Shown in pieces: positions 1,671 to 60,289 of a stretch of 64,000 bases of DNA (within the stretch, counting starts at the first letter, position 1; the number at the start of each line of letters is the position of its first letter). Source of the stretch: Candidatus Cloacimonadales bacterium (lineage in GTDB: Bacteria > Cloacimonadota > Cloacimonadia > Cloacimonadales > JAFGVF01); contig OY762964.1 in assembly GCA_963667035.1 (NCBI GenBank), forward strand, positions 1,344,001 to 1,408,000, read 5' to 3'. The notes below the pieces were generated by a model, which saw only the letters and a program-made list of their open reading frames with translations, had not been told where the DNA came from and did no database searches. Position numbers and translations under genes: made by a program.

Positions 1671-2768
1671 TCACTTCATTGACAAGAAGTCTCTAAGTCC
1701 CGTTACACCAAAAATCTCAAGTATAATTCCTATAATTAATACAGCTACAAAAATTGCTTTACCCCAATCTTGTCCTTTTAGACCTCCTAGTTGAGAAGGT
1801 TCTTTTGACAGATAAGCCGAAGCAGCAAAGAGTTCTTCACCTATTAAAGTAAAATCACAGGCTGCAACAAAAAAAGGTAACTGAGAAGACATAGCTGTAC
1901 CTGCAGTTTGTATTGCACCGCTTGCAAAACCGGTTTCCGCTAAGATGAGAGATTCTGCATAGAAAGTTCCAAGATAGAAGTTAGCTGCGGGTTTATCTCT
2001 AAGGATGATACCGTCAACACCGGCTACAAAACCGAATTGGTCATCTGTTAGATAGAAAATAGTATCGGGATTAAAAGCATCAGGTCTTCCTGCTTGCAGA
2101 TATGCTTCTTTAACAATTTCTCTTGCTGCCGAAAGAACCATGGAACGACATACAGGTACTAAAATCTCAGAGTCATAAGTAGCAGCTTTTTTTGCAAGAT
2201 GGCTTAATATAGTTAAACCGGCTATTGTTTGCATATCATCAAGATCCATGATGCCTGGTACAAACAAGATTGGTCTACCCATCTCAGTTGCTCTTCCTAC
2301 AGCTTCATCCATTGATTCGAGTCCTGATATTCTTCTAATATACAAGTCCTTACCACTTCTGGCAGAGATAATAAAGTATACAATCAATCCCATTAAAAGA
2401 ATTGCAGTAATCAAGACAGGAACCTTTGTCTTGTTAAACCACTGGGCAACAGGTTTACCAATCAGAGTCTGTGAAGTTAGTAATGAATCGGCTTGATAGA
2501 ATCCTACCCTATACTTATACTTTTTTTTGTAATCAAGTTCTTTGTCTTGATATGTTTTAACTCCATTTGTGATAGAGATTATTTCCTTATAATCTCCTGA
2601 TTCATCTTCTCGCTCGATTATTACCTTATCGATATTTACTTTTCCTATGTCCCATTCTAGGAGTAGCACACTACCATCATCATTTGGTAAATCATTAATA
2701 GTTGATTGAATTGAGAAAATGCATATTGGTAATATCAGCAATAGAATAGCTATTACATTTCGTCGCAT
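1671..2768 (-). CDS. Membrane protein with FN3-like N-terminal domain and DUF6754-like domain
   Basis: Signal peptide; DLPNDDG..W..YKYRV FN3-like segment; TM; IRRISGL/AVGRATEMGRP and IGEELFAASAYL motifs recalled as DUF6754-like. Confidence 0.7.
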   Translation of the reverse strand: MRRNVIAILLLILPICIFSIQSTINDLPNDDGSVLLLEWDIGKVNIDKVIIEREDESGDYKEIISITNGVKTYQDKELDYKKKYKYRVGFYQADSLLTSQTLIGKPVAQWFNKTKVPVLITAILLMGLIVYFIISARSGKDLYIRRISGLESMDEAVGRATEMGRPILFVPGIMDLDDMQTIAGLTILSHLAKKAATYDSEILVPVCRSMVLSAAREIVKEAYLQAGRPDAFNPDTIFYLTDDQFGFVAGVDGIILRDKPAANFYLGTFYAESLILAETGFASGAIQTAGTAMSSQLPFFVAACDFTLIGEELFAASAYLSKEPSQLGGLKGQDWGKAIFVAVLIIGIILEIFGVTGLRDFLSMK

Positions 2769-2949
2769 ATACTCTCCGTTTTCTTGTAATAGCTAATTTA
2801 TTGTTAAAGGATTATCTGTGTCAATGAAAGAGTTTAAATTGATTTAAATCAATAGTGCACAACATAAGGTTAATACCTTAACGTGAAAAATTAATTGACA
2901 AATCAGAGAATGCACTCATATTCTTATTAATGCGTTAAAGGAGGTTGTT

Positions 2950-3504
2950 ATGTCAGTGAAACAAGATTGCGAGCATATTAAAGTGGAAGAGATAAATCAG
3001 GATACAATCAAAGATATAGAAGATAAAATTGTGTATACTGACGAGAAAAAGCTATTGAATTTCTACGAAAAGCTAAGGTGTCATTGTATTCAATCTGCCG
3101 GGAAAAAGACAGGTAAGATTGGTAAAGAGATAACACAATTACTGCTGTTTCTACCTGATTTTGCAATGTTGGTCATAAGGTTATTTATTGATAAACGCAC
3201 TCCAAAACGTGTGAAGATTATCTTAGGGGGAGTAATCACTTATCTCTTTACTCCTTGGGATATAATACCGGATTTCATACCTATAATAGGTTATGTAGAT
3301 GATTTGGTGTTAGTGGTGATTGCTCTAAACAGTATGCTGAATGAAATTGATCCTGATATTGTTATGGATAATTGGAGCGGCAAGGAAAAACCATTGACCT
3401 TAATTCAACAAATTATTGCAGTGACAGAGAAATTCCTATCTCAAAATATTCTTGTAAGAATTAAAAAGATAGTAACTAATCTATTAGCGGAGAAAGAAAA
3501 GTAA
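2950..3504 (+). CDS. YkvA/DUF1232 family protein
   Basis: YLFTPWDIIPDFIPIIGYVDD motif; SD AGGAGG. Confidence 0.85.
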   Translation: MSVKQDCEHIKVEEINQDTIKDIEDKIVYTDEKKLLNFYEKLRCHCIQSAGKKTGKIGKEITQLLLFLPDFAMLVIRLFIDKRTPKRVKIILGGVITYLFTPWDIIPDFIPIIGYVDDLVLVVIALNSMLNEIDPDIVMDNWSGKEKPLTLIQQIIAVTEKFLSQNILVRIKKIVTNLLAEKEK

Positions 3505-4100
3505 TGAAACTAATGATAGGTTCTAAAAATCCCGATAAAATAAAAGAGATTAAAGAGATATTGGAGACTCTTGATTTAGATATTGAGATATACACAATGT
3601 CTGATTTTGATAACTTACCTGATGTAGTTGAAGATCATTCCACTATTGAAGGAAATGCTATTAAGAAAGCTACTGAATTAGCAAACTTCACCGGATTGCC
3701 TACCTTGGCGGATGACACGGGTTTCTTTATAGATGCACTTGATGGTGCCCCCGGAGTATATGCAGCTAGATTTGCCGGAGAAAATTGCTCATACAGAGAC
3801 AATAGAAACAAAGTAATTAAGTTAATGGAAACATTTAGTGATAGAACTGCCAGCTTTAGAACGGTAGTTGCCTTAGCTGAACCTAACAAATTAGTAGGAA
3901 CAGCTAAAGGTGAAGTTCTTGGTGACATTACTCATGCTGAACATGGGACAAGCGGTTTTGGTTATGATTCAATATTCAGGCTGAGAGAAACCGGAAAGAC
4001 TTTTGGTGAAATGCTTCCCAATGAAAAACATGGTATTAGCCATAGAGGAAGAGCTTTGAAAGCTATTTTACCACAAATAAAAGAATATTTTAGAATGTAG
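3504..4100 (+). CDS. rdgB: RdgB/HAM1 non-canonical purine NTP pyrophosphatase
   Basis: N..K..E, ADDTG, GAPGVYAAR, GFGYDSIF, SHRGRAL motifs. Confidence 0.95.
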   Translation: MKLMIGSKNPDKIKEIKEILETLDLDIEIYTMSDFDNLPDVVEDHSTIEGNAIKKATELANFTGLPTLADDTGFFIDALDGAPGVYAARFAGENCSYRDNRNKVIKLMETFSDRTASFRTVVALAEPNKLVGTAKGEVLGDITHAEHGTSGFGYDSIFRLRETGKTFGEMLPNEKHGISHRGRALKAILPQIKEYFRM

Positions 4101-46488: not shown

Positions 46489-47769
46489 TTATTCGATACA
46501 CTCCATAACATCAATATATAGAAGTGCGTTAAACAGTTTACTAATCTTAACTCCACATGGTTCATTATGACAATCAACCGAAGTTAATATAAAATCGGAA
46601 TCTAATCCTTGAAGCTTTAAAAATCCGTATTGCAAATTCCTATCATGAATAATACTTTCAAGAGAGCCTTGTTCTGACATAATGGCTTCTCTTATATCAA
46701 AGTTACCTTGAAAAGCCATGGGATTGTATTCTCCCGAATAAGAAATTGTACCTATAGAATAGACATCCTCCCCATACTCTTTATACAACCTCTCACCCAT
46801 CAACTCTCCTACCCAAGAGAATGTATCTCCATCATCAACAAACTCCTGAACCGTTTCCGGAGAATAGCAATCCTTATAATCCTTAACAATATGCTGATTA
46901 TGTGCCCAGATGATTATCTTTTCATTAGGGAACTTGTTTTCAAGTAACCACTTAACATTATCTGCCATCATGTTATCTCTAATAATTAGTTGCTTGTCCC
47001 ATTCCTCTGTCATAGTAACTTTAATGTTTGAGATAAGATTGTTAAGTTCCTGTTTGAAGAATCCTTTAGCATTATTATCATTAGCAATCTCTTCAAGTAA
47101 TGTCTTAGTAGTATTTAAATCCGAATAAAAAGTTGGTCTATTCTCTATCTCTCCAGATTCAAAACTTCTTACAGTATCTAGTAAGTTAGTATCATTTACT
47201 CTACCCTTGAATTTATCAGGAATACTGTCCTGAATGAATTTGATATACTGTTCTAAGGCCGCAGGAGATTTAAAGAGATGCTTATTATCAAAACCAGTTA
47301 TGGTTATTGGCCTATCCTTTTGTGATTGTATGTAATCATAGAAGGGGTGGATGTTTTTACCATAGCGCCAGAATATAAATAAGCTGTTCTTTAAAGCCTC
47401 AAAATCATTATCCTCAGAGGCATATCCTTCTGATAATGTATTGCATTCGTAAAAATCAGATTCAAAAGCTAACACATTAAAATCCATATTCTCATGCAGA
47501 TACTTCACTATCTTAGCTTTTAACAGAAAAGTTGTTCCGTCTCCATGATCCTGTTCTCCCAGTAAAACTATACGAGAGTCACGTATAGTATCTTTTAAAA
47601 AAGACATATCATTCATATCTTGAGATAAATCTAATGAATTGATTGGTATAAGATTATCATACACTAGTTGCTTTGATTTCATAGTATTGTCCTTTTGAAT
47701 TGAGTATAATCCCATTATAAACAGAATATGTAATATTATTAGGAAATCTCTTTTATTAAAACAATTCAT
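46489..47769 (-). CDS. Erythromycin esterase (Ere-like) family hydrolase
   Basis: IVLLGEQDHGDG, LAFESDF, RDNMMADNV, IIIWAHNQHI, FNALLYID. Confidence 0.85.
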   Translation of the reverse strand: MNCFNKRDFLIILHILFIMGLYSIQKDNTMKSKQLVYDNLIPINSLDLSQDMNDMSFLKDTIRDSRIVLLGEQDHGDGTTFLLKAKIVKYLHENMDFNVLAFESDFYECNTLSEGYASEDNDFEALKNSLFIFWRYGKNIHPFYDYIQSQKDRPITITGFDNKHLFKSPAALEQYIKFIQDSIPDKFKGRVNDTNLLDTVRSFESGEIENRPTFYSDLNTTKTLLEEIANDNNAKGFFKQELNNLISNIKVTMTEEWDKQLIIRDNMMADNVKWLLENKFPNEKIIIWAHNQHIVKDYKDCYSPETVQEFVDDGDTFSWVGELMGERLYKEYGEDVYSIGTISYSGEYNPMAFQGNFDIREAIMSEQGSLESIIHDRNLQYGFLKLQGLDSDFILTSVDCHNEPCGVKISKLFNALLYIDVMECIE

Positions 47770-51329: not shown

Positions 51330-51575
51330 ATGGAAACAAAGAACTTGAATAGACTCGCAATTAGTGATAATGGATTTATTTTTGATCCTTCCACAGGAAT
51401 ATCTTATAACTGTAATTTAATGGCTTTAACAATAATTAATCTTTTGAAAGCGGGATTGAGCGAAGAAGAGATTGAAACAAAAATATATTCTGAGTTTGAA
51501 GTCACTCAGGAAAACCTAAATAGAGATGTTGCTTATTTTGTTAATCAATTGAAGAACTTACATCTGGTAAAGTAA
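51330..51575 (+). CDS. Stand-alone PqqD-family / RiPP recognition element (RRE) protein
   Basis: 81 aa; GFIFDPSTGISYNCN (beta strands) then IINLLK..EFEV..DVAYFVNQL (helices), typical PqqD pattern. Confidence 0.85.
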   Translation: METKNLNRLAISDNGFIFDPSTGISYNCNLMALTIINLLKAGLSEEEIETKIYSEFEVTQENLNRDVAYFVNQLKNLHLVK

Positions 51576-51576
51576 T

Positions 51577-52650
51577 ATGCAAATAGATTTAAGCAATTTA
51601 GAGATAACAGTAGCAGTTACGGGATTAAGGACCGGAGATAATCCTCAACCCGGAACACCTGTTATAAGATGTCTTCGTGATGCAGGATTTAAAGGTAAGA
51701 TTGTTGCACTTGTTTATGATGCTTTAGAAGCAGGCATCTATGTTCAAGATTTAGCTGATGAAATTTATTTAATGCCGTTTCCTTCCGGTGGTTCGGAAAT
51801 ATTCCTAAAAAGATTGGACTATATACTTAGTCAGACAAGTATAGATGTTATCATCCCCACACTTGATTCAGAGATTATTAACTATATAAGACTTCAAGAT
51901 AAACTGAATGAACGTGGTATTAAATTTTACTTACCAACAGAGGAACAATTCCTTTCAAGAGATAAAACAAGACTCAACAGAGAGTTTGAAAACCTTGGAA
52001 TTAAAGTACCCAAGACTATCTTCTGTAGCGACGCAAAAGAGTTATACAATATTGTTACAACAATTACTTTTCCATTCTTTGTTAAAGGAAGACTATACGA
52101 GGCTTATGAGGTATTCACTATTGATGAAGCCTTTGATGTATTCGCAAAACTCAAAGCTAAATGGGGTCTTCCGGTTATAGTACAAGAGAAAGTCGTTGGG
52201 GATGAGTTTAATGTTTCCATAGTAGGTGATGGTGAAGGTGGTGTTCTTGGAATGATTCCACAGAGAAAGCTTATTATAACTGATAAAGGTAAAGGCTTTG
52301 GAGGAGTTGTTGTTGAGAATAAAGAGTTAACTGAGTTTACTGATAAAGTCATATCTACACTTAAATGGAGAGGCCCGGCTGAACTTGAAGTAATACAAAA
52401 CGGAGCAGGTGAGATTTTCATTATTGAGATTAATCCAAGATTTCCTGCCTGGATAAGACTATCTTCTGGTGCTGGACAAAACTTACCGGCTATATGTCTA
52501 CTCAAAGCTCTTGGAGAGAAAGTCGAACCTATCAAAGAGTATAAAAGCGGAACAATATTTATTAGGCATTCTGAAGATATAATCTCTTCAATTGATAAAT
52601 ACGGAACTATCTCCAGTTTAGGAGAATTACACTATAACAAGGATAATTAA
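51577..52650 (+). CDS. ATP-grasp carboxylate-amine ligase-like protein
   Basis: IIPTLDSE, RDK, FPFFVKG, IVQE, IIEINPRFP. Confidence 0.88.
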   Translation: MQIDLSNLEITVAVTGLRTGDNPQPGTPVIRCLRDAGFKGKIVALVYDALEAGIYVQDLADEIYLMPFPSGGSEIFLKRLDYILSQTSIDVIIPTLDSEIINYIRLQDKLNERGIKFYLPTEEQFLSRDKTRLNREFENLGIKVPKTIFCSDAKELYNIVTTITFPFFVKGRLYEAYEVFTIDEAFDVFAKLKAKWGLPVIVQEKVVGDEFNVSIVGDGEGGVLGMIPQRKLIITDKGKGFGGVVVENKELTEFTDKVISTLKWRGPAELEVIQNGAGEIFIIEINPRFPAWIRLSSGAGQNLPAICLLKALGEKVEPIKEYKSGTIFIRHSEDIISSIDKYGTISSLGELHYNKDN

Positions 52651-52651
52651 A

Positions 52652-53995
52652 ATGAAAAAAAAATATACTCCCCCATTTATAGAGAAGAATAATGTTGGCA
52701 TGACTAACAAGTTCGGTTTCTCGAGCGTTGTTAACTATATAGATAGAATTGAAAATGTCCCAGTAGCCGATATAGTAGATAAATTTGGATCTCCAGTGAT
52801 AGTATTTTCCGAAAATGCTATAAGAGAAAAATATCGAAGAATGAAAACCGAATTAGAAAAACATTATCCAAATGCAGAGATTAGTTGGTCGTATAAAACG
52901 AACTATTTACAAGCAATCTCTTCAATATTACATCAAGAAGGAGCAAAGCCAGAAGTAGTGAGTATCATGGAATATGATATGGCTAAAGGACTAGGCCAGA
53001 AAGGTGAAGATATTATTTTTAACGGTCCGGGAAAGCGTAAAAACGACTTATTAACTGCTGTTTCAGAGAAAGCCAAAATACACATTGATCACATGGACGA
53101 GTTATTTTTACTCGAAGAAGTGGCTGACGAATTAAGTATGACTCCTCAAGTAGCCATCCGAGTTAATATGGACACAAAAGTATACCCTCAATGGCAAAGA
53201 TTCGGTTTTAATTATGACAATGGAGAAGCAATGAGAGTTCTTCAAAGGATAGTATCCGGAGGAAAACTACAGATTATTGGTCTTCACTGTCACATAGGCA
53301 CTTTCATGTTAGAACCTTCAGCCTACTATTATTCTGCAAAAGCATTGTTAGATTTAGCTATGCAACTTAAGGATAAATTTGGAATTGTAATTGATTATAT
53401 AGATTTAGGTGGAGGATTTGCTTCGAGAAATACCCTTCATAACCAATATACTCCCGGTGAATTTGCTTCACCCAATCCTGATCAGTATTTTTCAGCAATA
53501 GGTAAAGCTTTTAATGAATCTCAGTTTACAAGAGAGGAGAATCCGAGATTAATTATGGAAACAGGACGAGTCTTGGTTTCTGAAGCAGGATACTGTATTG
53601 CGTCAGTACTTGGTAAAAAAGACTTACCTACAGGACAAAGAGCCGTAATTCTTGATGGTGGAGTAAACATTATGATAACAGCTTGGTGGTATAATCTGAA
53701 TATTAAACCTGCTCAACCTCTTTCAGGAACATCCAGAAATACAATTTTTTATGGTCCTTTGTGTATGAACATTGATGTTGTTAAGCCTGATTGTGTATTC
53801 CCTGATTTACAAGTTAATGATAAAGTTGTAATTCATCCTGTTGGTGCATATAATGTAACCCAATGGATGCAGTTTATTGAATATAGACCCAATGTAGTAT
53901 TGATAACAGAGACCGGTGAAATTGAACTGATTAGAGAAAGAGAATATCTCAAAGACATTCAACACAAAGAGAGAATACCGGAACACTTGAAGTAG
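52652..53995 (+). CDS. Fold-type III PLP enzyme (LysA/ornithine decarboxylase-like, divergent)
   Basis: SYKTN (PLP Lys), FNGPGK, HCHIGT, DLGGGF, ETGR, GPLC, GAY. Confidence 0.85.
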   Translation: MKKKYTPPFIEKNNVGMTNKFGFSSVVNYIDRIENVPVADIVDKFGSPVIVFSENAIREKYRRMKTELEKHYPNAEISWSYKTNYLQAISSILHQEGAKPEVVSIMEYDMAKGLGQKGEDIIFNGPGKRKNDLLTAVSEKAKIHIDHMDELFLLEEVADELSMTPQVAIRVNMDTKVYPQWQRFGFNYDNGEAMRVLQRIVSGGKLQIIGLHCHIGTFMLEPSAYYYSAKALLDLAMQLKDKFGIVIDYIDLGGGFASRNTLHNQYTPGEFASPNPDQYFSAIGKAFNESQFTREENPRLIMETGRVLVSEAGYCIASVLGKKDLPTGQRAVILDGGVNIMITAWWYNLNIKPAQPLSGTSRNTIFYGPLCMNIDVVKPDCVFPDLQVNDKVVIHPVGAYNVTQWMQFIEYRPNVVLITETGEIELIREREYLKDIQHKERIPEHLK

Positions 53996-54003
53996 ACGTA
54001 TTT

Positions 54004-56145
54004 ATGAATAAATCAAAGTATTTATACTCCTTTATTGAGGCAGTTCTTAACTCATACTCAACAATTATGTTCAGTAATGAAAGAATAGTAGGTCTCTTAA
54101 TACTATTATCTACACTGATAGATTGGAAAACAGGCTTATCGGGTTTAGTCGGAACCGCAATAGCTTTACTATTTGCCAGAGTATTCAGGTTTGAAGGATG
54201 GGATAGTAAATCAGGTTTGTTAGGTTTCAATAGTCTACTAGTTACTTTAGGATTAGGGTATTTCTACCCTTTCAACGGATCTAATCCCTTAATATTCTCA
54301 AGTATCCTCATAATAGCATCAATACTAGCTCTTTTTACTTATATTGCGTTAAATACGATTATTGTTCGCTATTTAAATTTCCCTTCAATGAGTTTATCTT
54401 TCTCAGTAATAGCTATATTCTTAAGCTTTTTCTATCTGAGAATAGGTGGGACATTGATAGGTGAGATTAGGCCCTTGTTGATACAGACATCTATTGAACT
54501 ACCTCAATACTTTGATTTGTATTTAAAAAGCCTTGGTAGCATTTTTTTTCAACCGAATATTATAACCGGAGCAGTCATTGCATTAGCACTGTTAGTAACT
54601 TCTAGAATAGGTTTTGTTCTATCTTTAGTAGGATTTAGTCTTAGTTTTGTTTTTATGACAGTGTTCAATAGCTTCCCAACAGGTGAGATACTATTCCCCA
54701 GTTTGAACCTCATTCTTATCTCAATAGCTATAGGAGGAGTGTTCTTCATCCCTAGTTGGTACTCTTATTTGATTGCTGTTATTGCGGGTATTACCGGTAT
54801 CATTATTGCTTTCTCATTCCAGACAATGCTTTACAATTTCTTTGTTCCGCCTTTTGCATTTCCTTATTGCATTACAGTATTCATCTACGTATATGCAATG
54901 CGATTAAGGTTAGTAAACAAAAATCCCTATAGTATTGATTACGGTTCTTTCCATCCTGAAGGAAACTTAGAGTACTATTACTCAAGAATAGAAAGATTTT
55001 ATGAAACAGGAACTTCCCAGTTTGCTCTTCCATTTAGTGGCGAATGGACTATTACACAGGGGAATGAAGGTGAGTTTACTCATAAAGACTTATGGAAACA
55101 TGCTTGGGATTTTGAGATTTATGATAAAGAAGGTAGCAGTTATAGAAATGAGGGAGTAAATGTTACTGATTATTACTGCTATGGGAAACCCGTGTTTGCA
55201 TCTGCTCCCGGGTATGTAACTAAAGTTCTTGATGGTATTTTGGATAATCCGGTAGGACAAATCAATACTATAGATAACTGGGGAAACTATGTTATCGTTC
55301 ATCATTGGGGTAGTATCTATTCAATGTATGCCCATTTAAAGCCAGGAACTATAAATCTCAAACAAGGTGATACAATTAGCAAAGGGACTAAGCTTGGATC
55401 TGTTGGTAACTCGGGACGTTCTGCTGTTCCCCATTTGCATTTTAACATACAATTAGGTCCGGAGCCCGGCTCATCCACATTGAAATCCTATCTTGTTAAT
55501 TACAAAACAACAATAGATAACACTAACTTCAAGTTTATTCCATATGGTATTCCATTGAAAGATGATAGGATCTCTCCCCTAATTCCTGATTCTTCATTGC
55601 AAGATATTTTGAATCTTAAAGTCACTGATAAATCTTCATTCAAAGTGAGAACAGTTAAAGGTGTTAAACAAGAAACTTGGGAAGTCAATGTAGATTTACT
55701 AGGAAACCTAAGTATTATTAGTGATAAATCCTATATCTATTTTTCTGTTTATGAAGGAATCTACAATTGTTTTAGTTACTATGGCAAGAGAAACATCGGA
55801 TTACACACCTTTGCACTTATCTTATCAAGACTACCATATTTAAAAAGTAAAGCAATTGAATGGACTGATAAACCTCCTCTTTCTATTTTCTATAATCCGT
55901 TTATAGAAAAAACAGTTCTCTTCATCAAAGCTTTCTTACCAAATTTCATAACGACAGAAGCCCAATATAAAGCAGTTGACAATAACAACATCATAAAAAT
56001 AGATTCATTTATTACCATAAAGATTGTAAATAGAATCTTTAAAAGCTACCATGGCAAGTTAGAGGTTGATGTAAGTAAGGGGATTACATACATGAGCTTG
56101 GAGGATAGCAAAAAATTTCTTGTAGAGGTTGAAAGAATAGAATAA
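54004..56145 (+). CDS. Urea-transporter-like membrane domain fused to M23 metallopeptidase domain
   Basis: About 10 TM with GLLGFNSLL and SLGSIFFQPNIITG; then ITQG..H..AWDF, GNYV, YAHL, GNSGRS..PHLHF. Confidence 0.8.
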   Translation: MNKSKYLYSFIEAVLNSYSTIMFSNERIVGLLILLSTLIDWKTGLSGLVGTAIALLFARVFRFEGWDSKSGLLGFNSLLVTLGLGYFYPFNGSNPLIFSSILIIASILALFTYIALNTIIVRYLNFPSMSLSFSVIAIFLSFFYLRIGGTLIGEIRPLLIQTSIELPQYFDLYLKSLGSIFFQPNIITGAVIALALLVTSRIGFVLSLVGFSLSFVFMTVFNSFPTGEILFPSLNLILISIAIGGVFFIPSWYSYLIAVIAGITGIIIAFSFQTMLYNFFVPPFAFPYCITVFIYVYAMRLRLVNKNPYSIDYGSFHPEGNLEYYYSRIERFYETGTSQFALPFSGEWTITQGNEGEFTHKDLWKHAWDFEIYDKEGSSYRNEGVNVTDYYCYGKPVFASAPGYVTKVLDGILDNPVGQINTIDNWGNYVIVHHWGSIYSMYAHLKPGTINLKQGDTISKGTKLGSVGNSGRSAVPHLHFNIQLGPEPGSSTLKSYLVNYKTTIDNTNFKFIPYGIPLKDDRISPLIPDSSLQDILNLKVTDKSSFKVRTVKGVKQETWEVNVDLLGNLSIISDKSYIYFSVYEGIYNCFSYYGKRNIGLHTFALILSRLPYLKSKAIEWTDKPPLSIFYNPFIEKTVLFIKAFLPNFITTEAQYKAVDNNNIIKIDSFITIKIVNRIFKSYHGKLEVDVSKGITYMSLEDSKKFLVEVERIE

Positions 56146-57542
56146 TGCTTTTTAATTCTTTAGAGTTTGCTCTATTTTTACCAATAGTTCTAATCCTGTT
56201 TCATTTGATTCCAGCAAAGGGAAGATGGGGTTTGTTACTAGGAGCAAGTTTCTTATTTTATAGTTTTTGGAGACCTGAATATCTACTACTGATAGTAACA
56301 TCAATAGTAGTAGATTATATTGCAGGTATCAGAATTGAGAAAAGCAAATCTCAAAGAATTAAAAAAACATTTCTTATCATAAGTTTAATAACTAATCTAG
56401 GACTACTGCTATTCTTTAAATATTTTAATTTCCTTGCTAACAGCATTGTAAATCTAATACCAACTATGCAATTCGAAACTAATCACAGATTCCTCAATGT
56501 GCTTCTTCCGGTTGGAATTTCTTTTTATACTTTCCAGACAATGGGCTACACAATAGATGTTTATAAAGGGAAATTAAAAGCAGAAAAACACATAGGCTAT
56601 TTTGCTCTTTATGTCTCATTCTTTCCACAACTTGTAGCTGGTCCTATTGAGAGAGCTGATCATCTTTTACCTCAGTTTAAAAAAAAGAAGCCAATAACTA
56701 ATGATGATTTGTTAATAGGATTTTCAAGAATAGTATTAGGCTTTTTTAAGAAAGTAGTAATTGCAGACAGATTAGCTTTATTCTCTGACGAGGTGTTTAA
56801 TCATGCTACTTCTTATTCAGGAATACCACTAATTATTGGAGTAGTTTTTTTTACATTTCAAATCTATTGCGATTTCAGTGGATACACTGATATCGCTTTA
56901 GGTATAGCTAGAATAATGGGAATCAGATTGCTTGAGAACTTTAAAACTCCTTATCTTTCAAGAAACATTAATGAATTCTGGAAGCGTTGGCATATATCTC
57001 TCTCCGGATGGTTCAGAGACTACTTATACATTCCTCTAGGGGGGAATAGAATTTCAATACCCCGTAAGTATTTAAACTTGATTATTGTATTTGTCCTTAG
57101 CGGATTTTGGCATGGAGCAAATTGGACATTTATGATTTGGGGATTTGTACATGGTGTTCTACTTATTGGATGGAATATTCTTAAACCTCTAAATCTTAGA
57201 ATTCCAAAAGCAATTAGCATTTTTCTCACATTCATAGTTGTTAGTATTGCTTGGATTTTCTTCAGGGCATCATCACTTTCTGATTCATTACACATCATAG
57301 GCAGTATCATCTCCCCTGTTCATTGGGGTGGATTTTTACCCGGGTTAACGATGACAGAATTAATTTTAAGTGCATTTTTCATTACCTTAATGAGCATAAT
57401 ACATTCAAGGTTAGGAGCAGATATGCAGAAGATGCTAAATCAATCACCATTAAAAAGAGTTCTTGTATTGAGCTCGCTAGTAGTTTTGATATTCAGTTTC
57501 GGAATATTTAACGAAAACCAGTTTATCTATTTCCAATTCTAA
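56145..57542 (+). CDS. MBOAT O-acyltransferase (AlgI/PatA/DltB-like)
   Basis: LPVGISFYTFQ, FFPQLVAGPIER, FWKRWHISLS, SGFWHGANW, C-terminal FIYFQF. Confidence 0.95.
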   Translation: MLFNSLEFALFLPIVLILFHLIPAKGRWGLLLGASFLFYSFWRPEYLLLIVTSIVVDYIAGIRIEKSKSQRIKKTFLIISLITNLGLLLFFKYFNFLANSIVNLIPTMQFETNHRFLNVLLPVGISFYTFQTMGYTIDVYKGKLKAEKHIGYFALYVSFFPQLVAGPIERADHLLPQFKKKKPITNDDLLIGFSRIVLGFFKKVVIADRLALFSDEVFNHATSYSGIPLIIGVVFFTFQIYCDFSGYTDIALGIARIMGIRLLENFKTPYLSRNINEFWKRWHISLSGWFRDYLYIPLGGNRISIPRKYLNLIIVFVLSGFWHGANWTFMIWGFVHGVLLIGWNILKPLNLRIPKAISIFLTFIVVSIAWIFFRASSLSDSLHIIGSIISPVHWGGFLPGLTMTELILSAFFITLMSIIHSRLGADMQKMLNQSPLKRVLVLSSLVVLIFSFGIFNENQFIYFQF

Positions 57543-57543
57543 C

Positions 57544-58491
57544 ATGAAAGCAATTATTAAATATATTATACTCTTTATGTCGGTTACAGTTATCCTAGTA
57601 GCAATACTAGCCGTTATAAACAGATTCATTTTCTTACCCGTAATCTATAATCCGAAGTATTTTTCTTTAAATGAGAAAACATTCATAATGGGTGATTCCC
57701 ATACTCAGTGTGCTATTAATCCTAAGTATATTGATGATTCAGTAAATCTATCAAAAAATAGTGAGAATTACTTTCTAACTTACGTTAAATTGTCATATTT
57801 CCTCAAGTACAACAAACCTAATCGTTTAATACTAAATTTCTCATATCATAACTTCTCAACCTTATACGACAAAGAGATGTTTGGAGTTAGGCGTAATGTT
57901 CTCCTAAACAGATATTATCCAATTATTAATGATAAAAGCAACTTTTTTACTTCCAAGAAAGATGGTGACTGGCTATACACAAAACTTAAATATGATTGGG
58001 GTTTGCCATTTGATTTTTCGAATAACATGCACTTGTTTTTCTATTTGAAGCATTTTGATAAACCTGATATTGCCAACTATCCCTTCGGAGGTTACTATAG
58101 ATACAATGATACTTGTAATCTATCAAACGATACAATCAAGCATTCTCTAAAGGCACATTATAACAACAATGGAGAACGAGCCGGTGTTTCTAAACTGATG
58201 TATGATTATGTCAAAAGAATTTGCGAGGTTTGCAAAGAGAATGATATTGAGATTATTTTAGTGAACACTCCAGTACATACTGATTATTATAAAAAAATCC
58301 CTGAAGCCTTTAAAGAAAATCACATTATAGTATATAATTACTTGAAAGAAGAATATAGTGCTAAATATTTTGATTTCTCAACGTTTCCAATTCCTGATAA
58401 AGGATATGGAGATGGTGATCATCTGAATGCTTATGGAGCAACCATATTCTCAAAAGAACTTAAGAAAACTTTAGACTCATTGGAGGAATAG
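57544..58491 (+). CDS. SGNH/DltD-like extracytoplasmic acyltransferase/esterase
   Basis: N-terminal TM anchor; GDSH; C-terminal DGDHLN. Confidence 0.75.
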   Translation: MKAIIKYIILFMSVTVILVAILAVINRFIFLPVIYNPKYFSLNEKTFIMGDSHTQCAINPKYIDDSVNLSKNSENYFLTYVKLSYFLKYNKPNRLILNFSYHNFSTLYDKEMFGVRRNVLLNRYYPIINDKSNFFTSKKDGDWLYTKLKYDWGLPFDFSNNMHLFFYLKHFDKPDIANYPFGGYYRYNDTCNLSNDTIKHSLKAHYNNNGERAGVSKLMYDYVKRICEVCKENDIEIILVNTPVHTDYYKKIPEAFKENHIIVYNYLKEEYSAKYFDFSTFPIPDKGYGDGDHLNAYGATIFSKELKKTLDSLEE

Positions 58492-59097
58492 ATGCGTAAA
58501 TACTTTCTTATTGTAATCATATTTATGTTTTTTACCAGTCTCATAGCAGATACTGACAGTCCAATAACCAGATCATATAATTATGAAAATAATTATCAAT
58601 ACACTGCAGCAATTGAAGCTATGAGCTTTCTTATTAGTAATGAACCTGATAATGCTTTCTATAATACAAGACTTGGATGGTTAAATTACCTAAATACCGA
58701 CTACACTGCTGCAAAGAACTACTATGAGAAAGCTTATAAGAAAGAAAAGAATACTGAAGCTCTGGAAGGTCTAAATCTAGTATCTTACTATTCCGGAGAC
58801 TGGGATAACGTAATTTACTACTCTGATGAGATTCTTAAGAAGTACCCTCATAACTTTGTTGCTTTAACCTATAAAGCATACGCATTTTTCATGAAGTCCG
58901 ATTGGATAAAAGCAGCAAAGATTTACAATCTTATTCTAGCAAGATATCCTTATCATATAGATAGCAGATGTTATCTTCTTGCCTGTTATACATATTCATC
59001 CGATATCCTTAAAGCGAAAACACAATACGAATTCGTTAAGAAATATGCTCCTACAAGTAAATATCTAATTGAGTATGAAGCTACTGTTAAAAAATAG
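58492..59097 (+). CDS. Secreted TPR protein
   Basis: Signal peptide; RLGWLNY..AKNYYEKA TPR units. Confidence 0.8.
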   Translation: MRKYFLIVIIFMFFTSLIADTDSPITRSYNYENNYQYTAAIEAMSFLISNEPDNAFYNTRLGWLNYLNTDYTAAKNYYEKAYKKEKNTEALEGLNLVSYYSGDWDNVIYYSDEILKKYPHNFVALTYKAYAFFMKSDWIKAAKIYNLILARYPYHIDSRCYLLACYTYSSDILKAKTQYEFVKKYAPTSKYLIEYEATVKK

Positions 59098-60289
59098 TAT
59101 ACTTGTTCTATTATTCCTAATTCCATTTCAACTATTCGGTGTCTCTTCTATTGAAGAAGCATACAGGTTTCTTTCTAACAGGCAATATGTTTCAGCAAAG
59201 AATGCTTATTTAGAGCTGATTAAAGCTGACAGTTGCTATGCTGATGCATATATAGGAGCAATAGAATCATCTTTAGGATTGAAACAAATCAAAGAAGCAG
59301 AGTCTCTTGCAAAGCAAGCTCAACCTGATTGTAATCCTAATCATATCTTTTCTCGCTATCTAGGTTACATATACTATCTTAAAAAGGACTATTATAGAAG
59401 TATCTATTATTATAAGATAGCCATCTGGGGTTCTATGGATAGGTCAATTGAACTCACAGGACTTGGAAAGAGTTATAGTGAATTACATTACTTGGATAAA
59501 GCTGAGAACTATCTTCTTAATGCTCTAAAGGTTAATAAGGATAATCTTTACGCTCAGAATGCTCTAAATCAAATTAAGCATTTACCATTGTATACTGAGA
59601 TTTATTCAGGAATCAATAGCTCTAACAAAGAAGAGAAGACTTACTTCGGTTCATTGTTTATAAATAGCTACAAGAGTCTATTAAATCTCAGATTTAATCA
59701 TTTTGAATCTAACAATACTAATAGAGATAGCTATGCTCTAGGTTATAAATACCTTACATCAGGTTGGAAAACAGGAATAGATTTAGCTTATATGTCAGGA
59801 GATTACAAGCTCCTTTACGATACTTACGGAACTTCTCTCATGTTTGAGAAAGAATTTATTAATCAATACGGTTACAATAGACTTGGTTACTCCTTTTCTT
59901 ATTGCTACTATGATATACTTTCATCAATACAGAATACTGCTTGGTATGAGACAAAGATAAACAGAGCCAATCTTTTATTGGAGTTAACAAGTAGTATAAG
60001 AGACTATGAAGTTAAGGATTTAGACAATGATTACTGGTTGTTATACACGGAATTAAATTACAGACTCCCTTATAACTTTACTTCAGGTCTATTCCTCTTT
60101 TATGGAGATAAAGAGTTCTATGTTTCTCCCAAAGGCTATGTAATTGATAACTACAGAGAACCAAACTTATCTTATGGATTTAACCTCATGTATGAGTTAC
60201 CCAAAATTTCCATAGCAGGAAATTATACAATTAATGATGATAAAACATACTCGTCCAGTCTTACACTGGGATATAAAACAAAGTTCTGA
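59075..60289 (+). CDS. TPR plus C-terminal beta-barrel outer-membrane protein
   Basis: Signal peptide; N-terminal TPRs; aromatic beta-strand C-half ending LTLGYKTKF. Confidence 0.7.
   Translation: MKLLLKNSILVLLFLIPFQLFGVSSIEEAYRFLSNRQYVSAKNAYLELIKADSCYADAYIGAIESSLGLKQIKEAESLAKQAQPDCNPNHIFSRYLGYIYYLKKDYYRSIYYYKIAIWGSMDRSIELTGLGKSYSELHYLDKAENYLLNALKVNKDNLYAQNALNQIKHLPLYTEIYSGINSSNKEEKTYFGSLFINSYKSLLNLRFNHFESNNTNRDSYALGYKYLTSGWKTGIDLAYMSGDYKLLYDTYGTSLMFEKEFINQYGYNRLGYSFSYCYYDILSSIQNTAWYETKINRANLLLELTSSIRDYEVKDLDNDYWLLYTELNYRLPYNFTSGLFLFYGDKEFYVSPKGYVIDNYREPNLSYGFNLMYELPKISIAGNYTINDDKTYSSSLTLGYKTKF

Follow-up and report, generated by a model that had tools for sequence, protein, structure and literature searches.

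RiPP recognition elements (RREs; RiPP, peptide made on ribosomes and modified after translation) are taken to mark ribosomal peptide natural products, and genome mining with them seeks an adjacent short precursor. The locus analyzed here lies on the + strand of a 64,000-nucleotide stretch of a Candidatus Cloacimonadales bacterium genome (contig OY762964.1, positions 1,344,001 to 1,408,000; this whole stretch is referred to as the window). A stand-alone RRE of the PqqD family (81 aa, 51330-51575) is followed there by an ATP-grasp ligase (357 aa, 51577-52650), a fold-III pyridoxal phosphate (PLP) decarboxylase (447 aa, 52652-53995, Pfam matches Orn_Arg_deC_N and Orn_DAP_Arg_deC) and a fusion of a urea-transporter-like membrane domain with an M23 metallopeptidase (UT-M23, 713 aa, 54004-56145). 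The decarboxylase begins with a tail that carries a short YxxPxI tag, and the lasso-type RRE appears to read this tag on a full-size metabolic enzyme. A first-pass annotation had proposed from the sequence that the RRE binds this built-in leader of the decarboxylase. That proposal finds support in silico from the conservation of the tag, the type of the RRE, the co-inheritance of the genes, complex prediction, residue covariation and the lack of another client, and binding of the tail by the RRE is considered probable.

In crystal structures, discrete lasso and LPP RREs recognize the motif [Y/W]xxPx[L/V/I/F/A], with the leader Tyr hydroxyl held by a highly conserved Asp (D70 in LppB), the leader Pro kink held by a conserved Asn (N33) and a Phe (F74) that separates two hydrophobic pockets (PMC13381572). 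The window RRE shares the PqqD/RRE fold family with the discrete lasso RREs (the B1 proteins TbiB1, TfuB1/FusB1 and PbaB1) and with LppB. It matches PF05402 over residues 17-80 with 34.4 bits, above the family cut-off of 23.4, and a profile of its 71-member family retrieves TbiB1 (9.2e-13) and TfuB1 (1.5e-9) as the best solved matches, followed by PbaB1 (1.2e-5) and LppB (3.7e-3), with PqqD itself at only 0.075. The stand-alone PqqD-like RRE that had been annotated two genes upstream of the decarboxylase is thus confirmed. A HMMER alignment to LppB, TbiB1 and TfuB1 places the hallmark Asp, Asn and Phe at D66, N29 and F70; N29 is present in 71 of 71 sequences, and D66 and F70 occur in 113 and 115, respectively, of 130 distinct RRE-tail pairs. 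By these sequence criteria, the window RRE is of the lasso-B1 type and has kept the hallmark leader-binding residues. The recognition motif is also shared, as is the predicted binding mode, in which a β-strand would be added to β3 and side-chain knobs would enter two pockets.

The differences from the lasso B1 proteins concern what surrounds this domain. The tag resides on a 447-aa enzyme rather than on a short precursor with a core peptide, and the proteins that accompany the RRE comprise an ATP-grasp ligase, a PLP decarboxylase and a fused channel-peptidase. A search of the genome for a B2 protease gave no match; none was made for the lasso cyclase. Lasso RRE models of NCBIfam matched only below their cut-offs: the best match, lasso_PqqD_Strm, has an E-value of 1.1e-7, and the lasso B1 models NF033530 and NF033536, which are the best ranked, give 32.0 and 24.5 bits against cut-offs of 70 or 80.

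Two further systems resemble the enzymes of the locus. Like this locus, the butirosin side-chain system of BtrI (carrier protein), BtrJ (ATP-grasp) and BtrK couples an ATP-grasp ligase to a fold-III PLP decarboxylase, which works on a tethered amino acid. Unlike that system, the operon proteins contain no acyl carrier protein (ACP) domain in Pfam scans, an RRE is found in the position of the carrier, and a peptide tag is carried by the decarboxylase itself. Both among solved structures and in NCBIfam, the core has its closest relative in the N-citrylornithine decarboxylase FslC/FigC from the rhizoferrin pathway (PDB 7KH2), with which it shares a logic of ligation followed by decarboxylation. 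The match ranges far below the family cut-off and starts at query residue 29, leaving the tag uncovered, and the FslC pathway uses a NIS synthetase where this locus has an ATP-grasp ligase together with the RRE and UT-M23.

Against solved structures in the PDB, the decarboxylase core is ranked closest to FslC (5.8e-57), then to Methanocaldococcus jannaschii LysA (MjLysA, 3.5e-43) and then to BtrK (4e-32). The NCBIfam FslC model (NF041039) scores 227.5 bits (E 2.5e-67) against a cut-off of 500 and the lysA model (TIGR01048) 212.9 bits against 297.9. The core has CMNID where MjLysA has CESSD and FslC has CMQHD, so it carries the CM(N/Q)xD motif in common with FslC. The CESxD-type motif of LysA binds the distal end of diaminopimelate. 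Assignment of the decarboxylase as LysA was considered and is ruled out by the score below the LysA cut-off and by CMNID in place of CESSD. A second, weaker match to the decarboxylase query lies elsewhere in the genome (24% identity, E 2.9e-11).

The decarboxylase open reading frame (ORF) at 52652-53995 (+) translates as MKKKYTPPFIEKNNVGMTNKFGFSSVVNYIDRIENVPVADIVDKFGSP..., and its N-terminus, MKKKYTPPFIEKNNVGMTNKFG, places about 30 residues ahead of the core (tail residues 1-30, 52652-52741). An extension of this size bearing YxxPxI before the PLP core had been described in the first-pass annotation, and the ORF translation, the starts of alignments and the AlphaFold2 (AF2) model agree on it. 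Pfam and NCBIfam alignments begin at residues 32-56, and none of the 31 solved relatives aligns before residue 18; for the best of them (FslC, LysA and BtrK) the alignment starts at 29-37. The AF2 model, built from a 75-sequence alignment, has a mean predicted local distance difference test score (pLDDT) of 90.3, with values of 59, 49 and 60 for residue blocks 1-10, 11-20 and 21-30, below 50 for residues 14-25, and at least 95 after the tail. Because AF2 models the tail as floppy and no solved relative has one, it is probably free. A start-codon artefact, with M17 as the true start, was also considered; it is ruled out by the conservation of residues 1-16 across phyla and by the ATG abutting the upstream stop codon. 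The ATG lies 1 nt past the TAA of the ATP-grasp gene (52648-52650), with AAGGA located 8 nt upstream.

The tag of this protein reads Y5-T-P-P8-F-I10, in agreement with the published motif and its location in an unstructured segment. Among 57 homologues with 50-100% identity, none departs from Y5, P8, I10 or K20. A set of 75 sequences drawn from many phyla likewise never varies at P8, and it keeps I10, G16 and K20 to at least 90%. The pattern [Y/F/W]xxPx[I/L/V/M/F], which admits F as a further choice for the first residue, occurs in 162 of the 164 distinct N-terminal regions (171 loci from many phyla), the remaining two being incomplete. This count consists of 153 regions found by the regular expression [YFW]xxPx[ILVM], 7 mis-anchored ones read by eye (YESPxI, YSTPVI) and 2 with F as the last residue. 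In 135 paired loci, the tag opens with Tyr 111 times, with Trp 14 times and with Phe 10 times. As judged from these alignments, the YxxPxI motif is under strong selection, and the lack of YxxP conservation among homologues that the first-pass annotation had named as fatal to its proposal did not materialize. A wider set of 150 representatives from across the library includes 69 whose core is preceded by 25 residues or more, and 29 of these bear the motif (26 clear tails and about 3 chance occurrences), compared with 1 of 60 representatives with shorter N-termini. Within this set, the tag is concentrated in the closest relatives; distant representatives mostly begin near the core without it, and P0128, P0132, P0135 and P0136 are relatives with no motif ahead of the core.

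A second conserved element, G16-x-x-N-K-F-G22 (52697-52717), follows the tag. Its K-aromatic-G pattern is present in 134 of 153 motif-bearing tails; the other 19 either have T, Q or P at the Lys position of NxFG or, like the ELGR-type tails, lack the element entirely. The latter form a sub-family (L128, L130, L132, L149, L150, L164, L170 and L187) that keeps YxPPxI and has ELGR...RNx[YH] in place of GxxNKFG, and these tails are paired with much more divergent RREs (HMM E 3e-5 to 1e-9, or no match; HMM, hidden Markov model). In the lineage of library representatives P0245 and P0146, the Pro of the tag is Met (YERMTL...SKYSG).

The genes that encode the RRE, ATP-grasp ligase, decarboxylase and UT-M23 form a cassette that recurs in all 10 of the loci from relatives. 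A close orthologue is found in 18 of 41 genomes of the same order, the window’s own included, with a patchy distribution across families, and the cassette also appears in records from Cloacimonadota, WOR-3, Thermotogota, Ignavibacteriota, Bacteroidota, Myxococcota, Aquificota, Desulfobacterota and Campylobacterales; Pedobacter paludis R-8 and Mucilaginibacter myungsuensis KCTC 22746 are examples of cultured strains that carry it. Among 143 loci with at least 1500 nt available upstream of the decarboxylase, 139 contain an RRE recognized by its HMM together with an ATP-grasp gene, and the other four contain a divergent PqqD-like ORF abutting the ATP-grasp gene. Linkage of the RRE, ATP-grasp, decarboxylase and UT-M23 is thus near-universal, the genes standing together in 143 of 143 assessable loci. 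UT-M23 follows the decarboxylase in nearly all loci. An alignment of 14 apparently tail-less relatives and a metagenome contig scan were also performed, and all 80 loci returned by the scan are either tailed members of the same cassette or incomplete.

Some cassettes depart from this arrangement. In genome G013 the cassette ATP-grasp gene is interrupted by an insertion of about 1.85 kb (L024:4781-6627) with a 480-aa ORF, guessed from its sequence to be a transposase; with its ATP-grasp gene split, the cassette is probably inactivated in this genome. On a Thermovibrio contig, the RRE and ATP-grasp pair occurs twice in tandem (L046:188-902 and 2562-3846).

The interaction was then modeled from the tail (residues 1-45, 75-row alignment) and the RRE (71-row alignment) along with three controls. 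The RRE-tail pair obtains ipSAE interface scores of 0.71, 0.71 and 0.69, and the best of the three controls obtains 0.20. Of 157 solved complexes, 116 clear the pass mark, as do 2 of 215 mismatched pairs, counts that are only rough guides when custom alignments are used. The runs share at least 83% of their contacts, with a pLDDT of at least 82 for the partner. The predicted interface joins tail residues 2-13 (KKKYTPPFIEKN, 52655-52690), including the knobs Y5, P8 and I10, to RRE residues 17, 24-32, 34-35, 52, 55-58, 62-63, 66-67, 70, 73-74 and 77, and the site corresponds to the canonical β3/α3 groove. The AlphaFold-type check of the RRE with the tail that had been suggested alongside the proposal therefore predicts binding, with residues 2-13 in the canonical groove.

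The two partners also vary together. In 130 distinct RRE-tail pairs, tails with Tyr in the tag are accompanied by D66 in 104 of 108 cases. Tails with Phe, which offer no hydroxyl, are accompanied by D66 in none of 9, position 66 being Tyr in six and Phe, Thr and Asn in one each. When a basic residue stands just before the tag Pro, RRE position 69 is acidic in 92 of 97 pairs; where Pro or Ala precedes the tag Pro, it is acidic in at most 4 of 30. At the level of the aligned sequences, this covariation is what direct contact predicts.

No other client for the RRE was detected. An HMM built from 122 distinct tails and searched against six-frame ORFs of the 3.1-Mb genome recovers this N-terminus only (3.7e-9, with the next match at 0.64), so that neither a free-standing precursor nor a second copy of the tag was found genome-wide by a search that a peptide sharing only YxxPxI would escape. 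The genes of the operon abut, with gaps of 1-41 nt between neighbors, and this leaves no room for a precursor gene. Both results bear out the earlier reading that no precursor ORF accompanies the RRE, which is also the only PqqD gene in the genome. The lasso B2 protease domain Transglut_core3 (PF13471) has no match in this 98.2%-complete, single-contig genome. Membership of the RRE in a lasso pathway was accordingly rejected on the grounds that there is no B2 domain, no room for a precursor and no free-standing copy of the tail, the cyclase (PF00733) not having been searched for.

With the tag on the decarboxylase and the lasso-type helper encoded two genes upstream, the helper probably grips the enzyme and not a peptide. 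In the proposed mechanism, the first 13 or so residues of the decarboxylase would serve as a lasso-type RRE recognition sequence clamped in the β3/α3 groove, with tail residues 9-12 adding a β-strand to β3 of the RRE. Tyr5 would occupy the first pocket and bond to Asp66 through its hydroxyl, Asn29 would hold the Pro8 kink, and Ile10 would enter the second pocket, beyond Phe70. About 20 floppy residues would then tether the enzyme core. By this means the RRE could hold the decarboxylase beside the ATP-grasp ligase, and perhaps also beside the UT-M23 membrane protein. An amino-acid conjugate produced by the ligase would be handed directly to the decarboxylase, which would act on conjugated amino acids in the manner of FslC and BtrK. 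Binding in the cell, the contact between RRE and ligase, and the chemistry are what we infer from these data.

The properties of the other two cassette proteins bear on what docking could be for. The ATP-grasp protein, which begins 1 nt past the RRE stop codon, matches ATPgrasp_Ter and ATP-grasp_3 in Pfam and PRK12767 (‘CPS-like’) in NCBIfam, where all matches are below cut-off. Its AF2 model (pLDDT 92) has as Foldseek neighbors 2pn1, the L-amino-acid ligase RizA, carbamoyl-phosphate synthetase (CPS), PurK, biotin carboxylase, PylC and Ddl; the structural neighbors are thus small-molecule ligases (RizA, PylC, Ddl, PurK) and not RimK or LysX. The UT-M23 protein matches the Pfam families UT (1.9e-48) and Peptidase_M23 (5.4e-16), and for each of H360, D369, H444, H477 and H479, 127 of 128 relatives have the same residue. 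M23 domains usually space their upstream His and Asp as HxxxD; here the invariant pair has the spacing H-x8-D (H360, D369), and the intervening His366 is variable. The M23 domain probably faces the cytoplasm according to the positive-inside rule, as RLRLVNKN follows the last hydrophobic segment in what was only a crude hydropathy scan.

Recruitment of the decarboxylase into a complex with the ligase, rather than covalent use or cleavage of the tail, is tentatively preferred as the purpose of docking. A gap of 1 nt separates the RRE gene from the ligase gene, the ligase model is similar to small-molecule ligases, and the nearest relatives of the decarboxylase take conjugated amino acids. What speaks for recruitment over a covalent role of the tail is that not every tail has the Lys.

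Several observations weigh against docking for recruitment or lessen the force of the evidence for it. No lineage that has lost only one partner was found among the loci examined, and for this reason the linkage shows co-inheritance and not dependence. On contig L179 (1-1146), a tailed decarboxylase and UT-M23 lie directly downstream of a sulfatase-like gene, with no ligase or RRE within the 1146 nt available, an arrangement which indicates that the operon can be split. A search for longer RRE proteins gave four matches, none fused to an ATP-grasp or decarboxylase domain, although this is weak evidence either way. The complex score possibly draws on memory, since lasso B1-leader complexes have been solved (5V1V, 6JX3, 9X90 and 9X8Z), and it shows likeness to these rather than binding by this particular copy. 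The control in which the RRE was kept and the tail was swapped for an unrelated 44-residue protein still produced 39 confident contacts at its score of 0.20, which indicates a tendency of the model to place peptides in the groove in any case. The covariation reflects only two changes (Tyr/Phe) and seven changes (basic residue) on the tree of the decarboxylase core, and independent contrasts never run in the opposite direction, yet are not significant (median p of 1 and 0.5). The AF2 model is of a monomer, and the tail may instead pack on the partner subunit of a dimer. The GxxNKFG element is conserved outside the predicted RRE interface, and docking does not account for it. Finally, the single metagenomic protein P0131 (871 aa) is an ATP-grasp-decarboxylase fusion that keeps the tag as YVRPSI, which pure tethering would not need, a mildly unfavorable point. 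With M-A-Y-V-R-P-S-I still in its linker, the protein resembles a read-through of the ligase stop codon, and P0131 could be either a real fusion or an assembly error.

Among the alternatives, the one that best withstands this evidence keeps the docking step and gives the tail a covalent role. Here the RRE would present the tail to the ATP-grasp ligase, the ligase would load a building block onto the Lys of NKFG, the decarboxylase would act on it in cis and the M23 domain would cut the product free at the channel. The tail would in this case be comparable to the LysW or BtrI carriers, except that it forms part of the enzyme. K20, the candidate acceptor, is the residue found invariant in the 57 close homologues and conserved to at least 90% in the set of 75, and it lies about 10 residues past the RRE-bound segment, where the core of a RiPP would sit. 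The nearest solved decarboxylases other than LysA use conjugated or carrier-bound amino acids (FslC, and BtrK, an L-glutamyl-[BtrI ACP] decarboxylase), the catalytic His and Asp of the M23 domain are those kept in 127 of 128 relatives, and the ligase-decarboxylase fusion retains its tag. This scheme is nonetheless held to be unlikely, as the Lys is missing from 19 of 153 motif-bearing tails with no other nucleophile or carboxylate universal, and as the ligase resembles small-molecule ligases in place of the protein-modifying RimK or LysX. A similarly low probability attaches to the decarboxylase as its own carrier, with the RRE presenting the tail, the ATP-grasp enzyme adding an amino acid to it (in most lineages at the Lys of NKFG) and the decarboxylase’s own active site decarboxylating the tethered residue; the final step of that route, in which a cytoplasmic M23 domain would release a small amine or amide into the urea-transporter-like pore, is no likelier. 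If the own-carrier route were true, the locus would encode an assembly line for small molecules that serves as its own template and puts RiPP leader recognition to a further use. In LysW with LysX/ArgX and in pearlin-type scaffold-peptide systems, an ATP-grasp enzyme loads a block onto a peptide handle and later enzymes use the tethered substrate. That concept would be common to this locus only if the tail is used covalently, and unlike the LysW systems the cassette has no separate carrier, its ligase is not a neighbor of LysX/RimK and its candidate acceptor Lys is not universal.

Somewhat less probable still is that the two partners do not dock at all, the tail being an intramolecular or dimer-swapped arm, such as a lid over the active site, and the RRE serving an unrecognized small peptide or a ligase substrate. 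Fold-III decarboxylases are obligate dimers, which the monomeric AF2 model does not represent, the conserved GxxNKFG lies outside the predicted interface, and [Y/W]xxPx[L/I/V] is a short pattern. An arm of this kind fits poorly with a tail modeled as disordered, with a tag that matches a known RRE recognition motif opposite an RRE that keeps the matching pockets, and with the loss of the Tyr-binding Asp that coincides with Phe tails. A separate peptide client is likewise opposed by the absence of any other tag-bearing ORF in 3.1 Mb and by abutting operon genes that leave no room to encode one.

Processing of the tail in the manner of lasso B1 and B2, with the RRE delivering it to the M23 domain so that clipping activates, inactivates or releases the decarboxylase at the membrane, would suit an RRE of the type whose partner in lasso pathways is the leader peptidase B2 (PMC10368454) and a peptidase domain that appears active, is always in the operon and probably faces the cytoplasm by the positive-inside rule, but is the most improbable of these explanations given that M23 bears no relation to B2 and Transglut_core3 is absent from the genome, that no conserved mark of a cleavage site, comparable to the lasso Thr at -2, was identified, and that the topology comes from a crude hydropathy scan only.

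Docking of the decarboxylase tail by the RRE, if true, accounts for an ‘orphan’ RRE without an adjacent precursor gene and extends leader recognition to a new job, either enzyme recruitment or self-templating. It also provides a first mechanistic handle on an undescribed multi-phylum operon that combines an RRE, an ATP-grasp ligase, a decarboxylase and a channel-peptidase. Full-text literature searches, with subscription journals outside their coverage, brought up neither an account of the cassette nor a case of an RRE that reads an enzyme-borne tag. The main text of a 2025 survey of RREs contains no occurrence of ‘decarboxylase’, ‘non-RiPP’ or ‘urea’ (PMC12710340).

Beyond UT-M23, the tightly packed genes of the + strand continue with an MBOAT (DltB-like) gene and a gene for a 315-aa protein without family match (56145-58491), followed by a small TPR protein (201 aa, 58492-59097) recognized by TPR Pfam matches. 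The TPR protein is a frequent cassette partner in sixth position, and homologues of it are encoded after UT-M23 in 9 of the 10 loci from relatives and in the majority of the others. The insertion of the MBOAT and 315-aa genes before it was observed only in this genus (L021, L022), and elsewhere the TPR gene follows more directly. The 406-aa protein encoded at 59069-60289 was considered as the counterpart of a 300-490-aa protein found after UT-M23 in other loci and was rejected when BLASTP against the Pedobacter copy gave nothing (E 0.49). Upstream of the operon, on the - strand at 46489-47769, lies a seemingly unrelated protein of the erythromycin-esterase family (PF05139) with an N-terminal hydrophobic segment.

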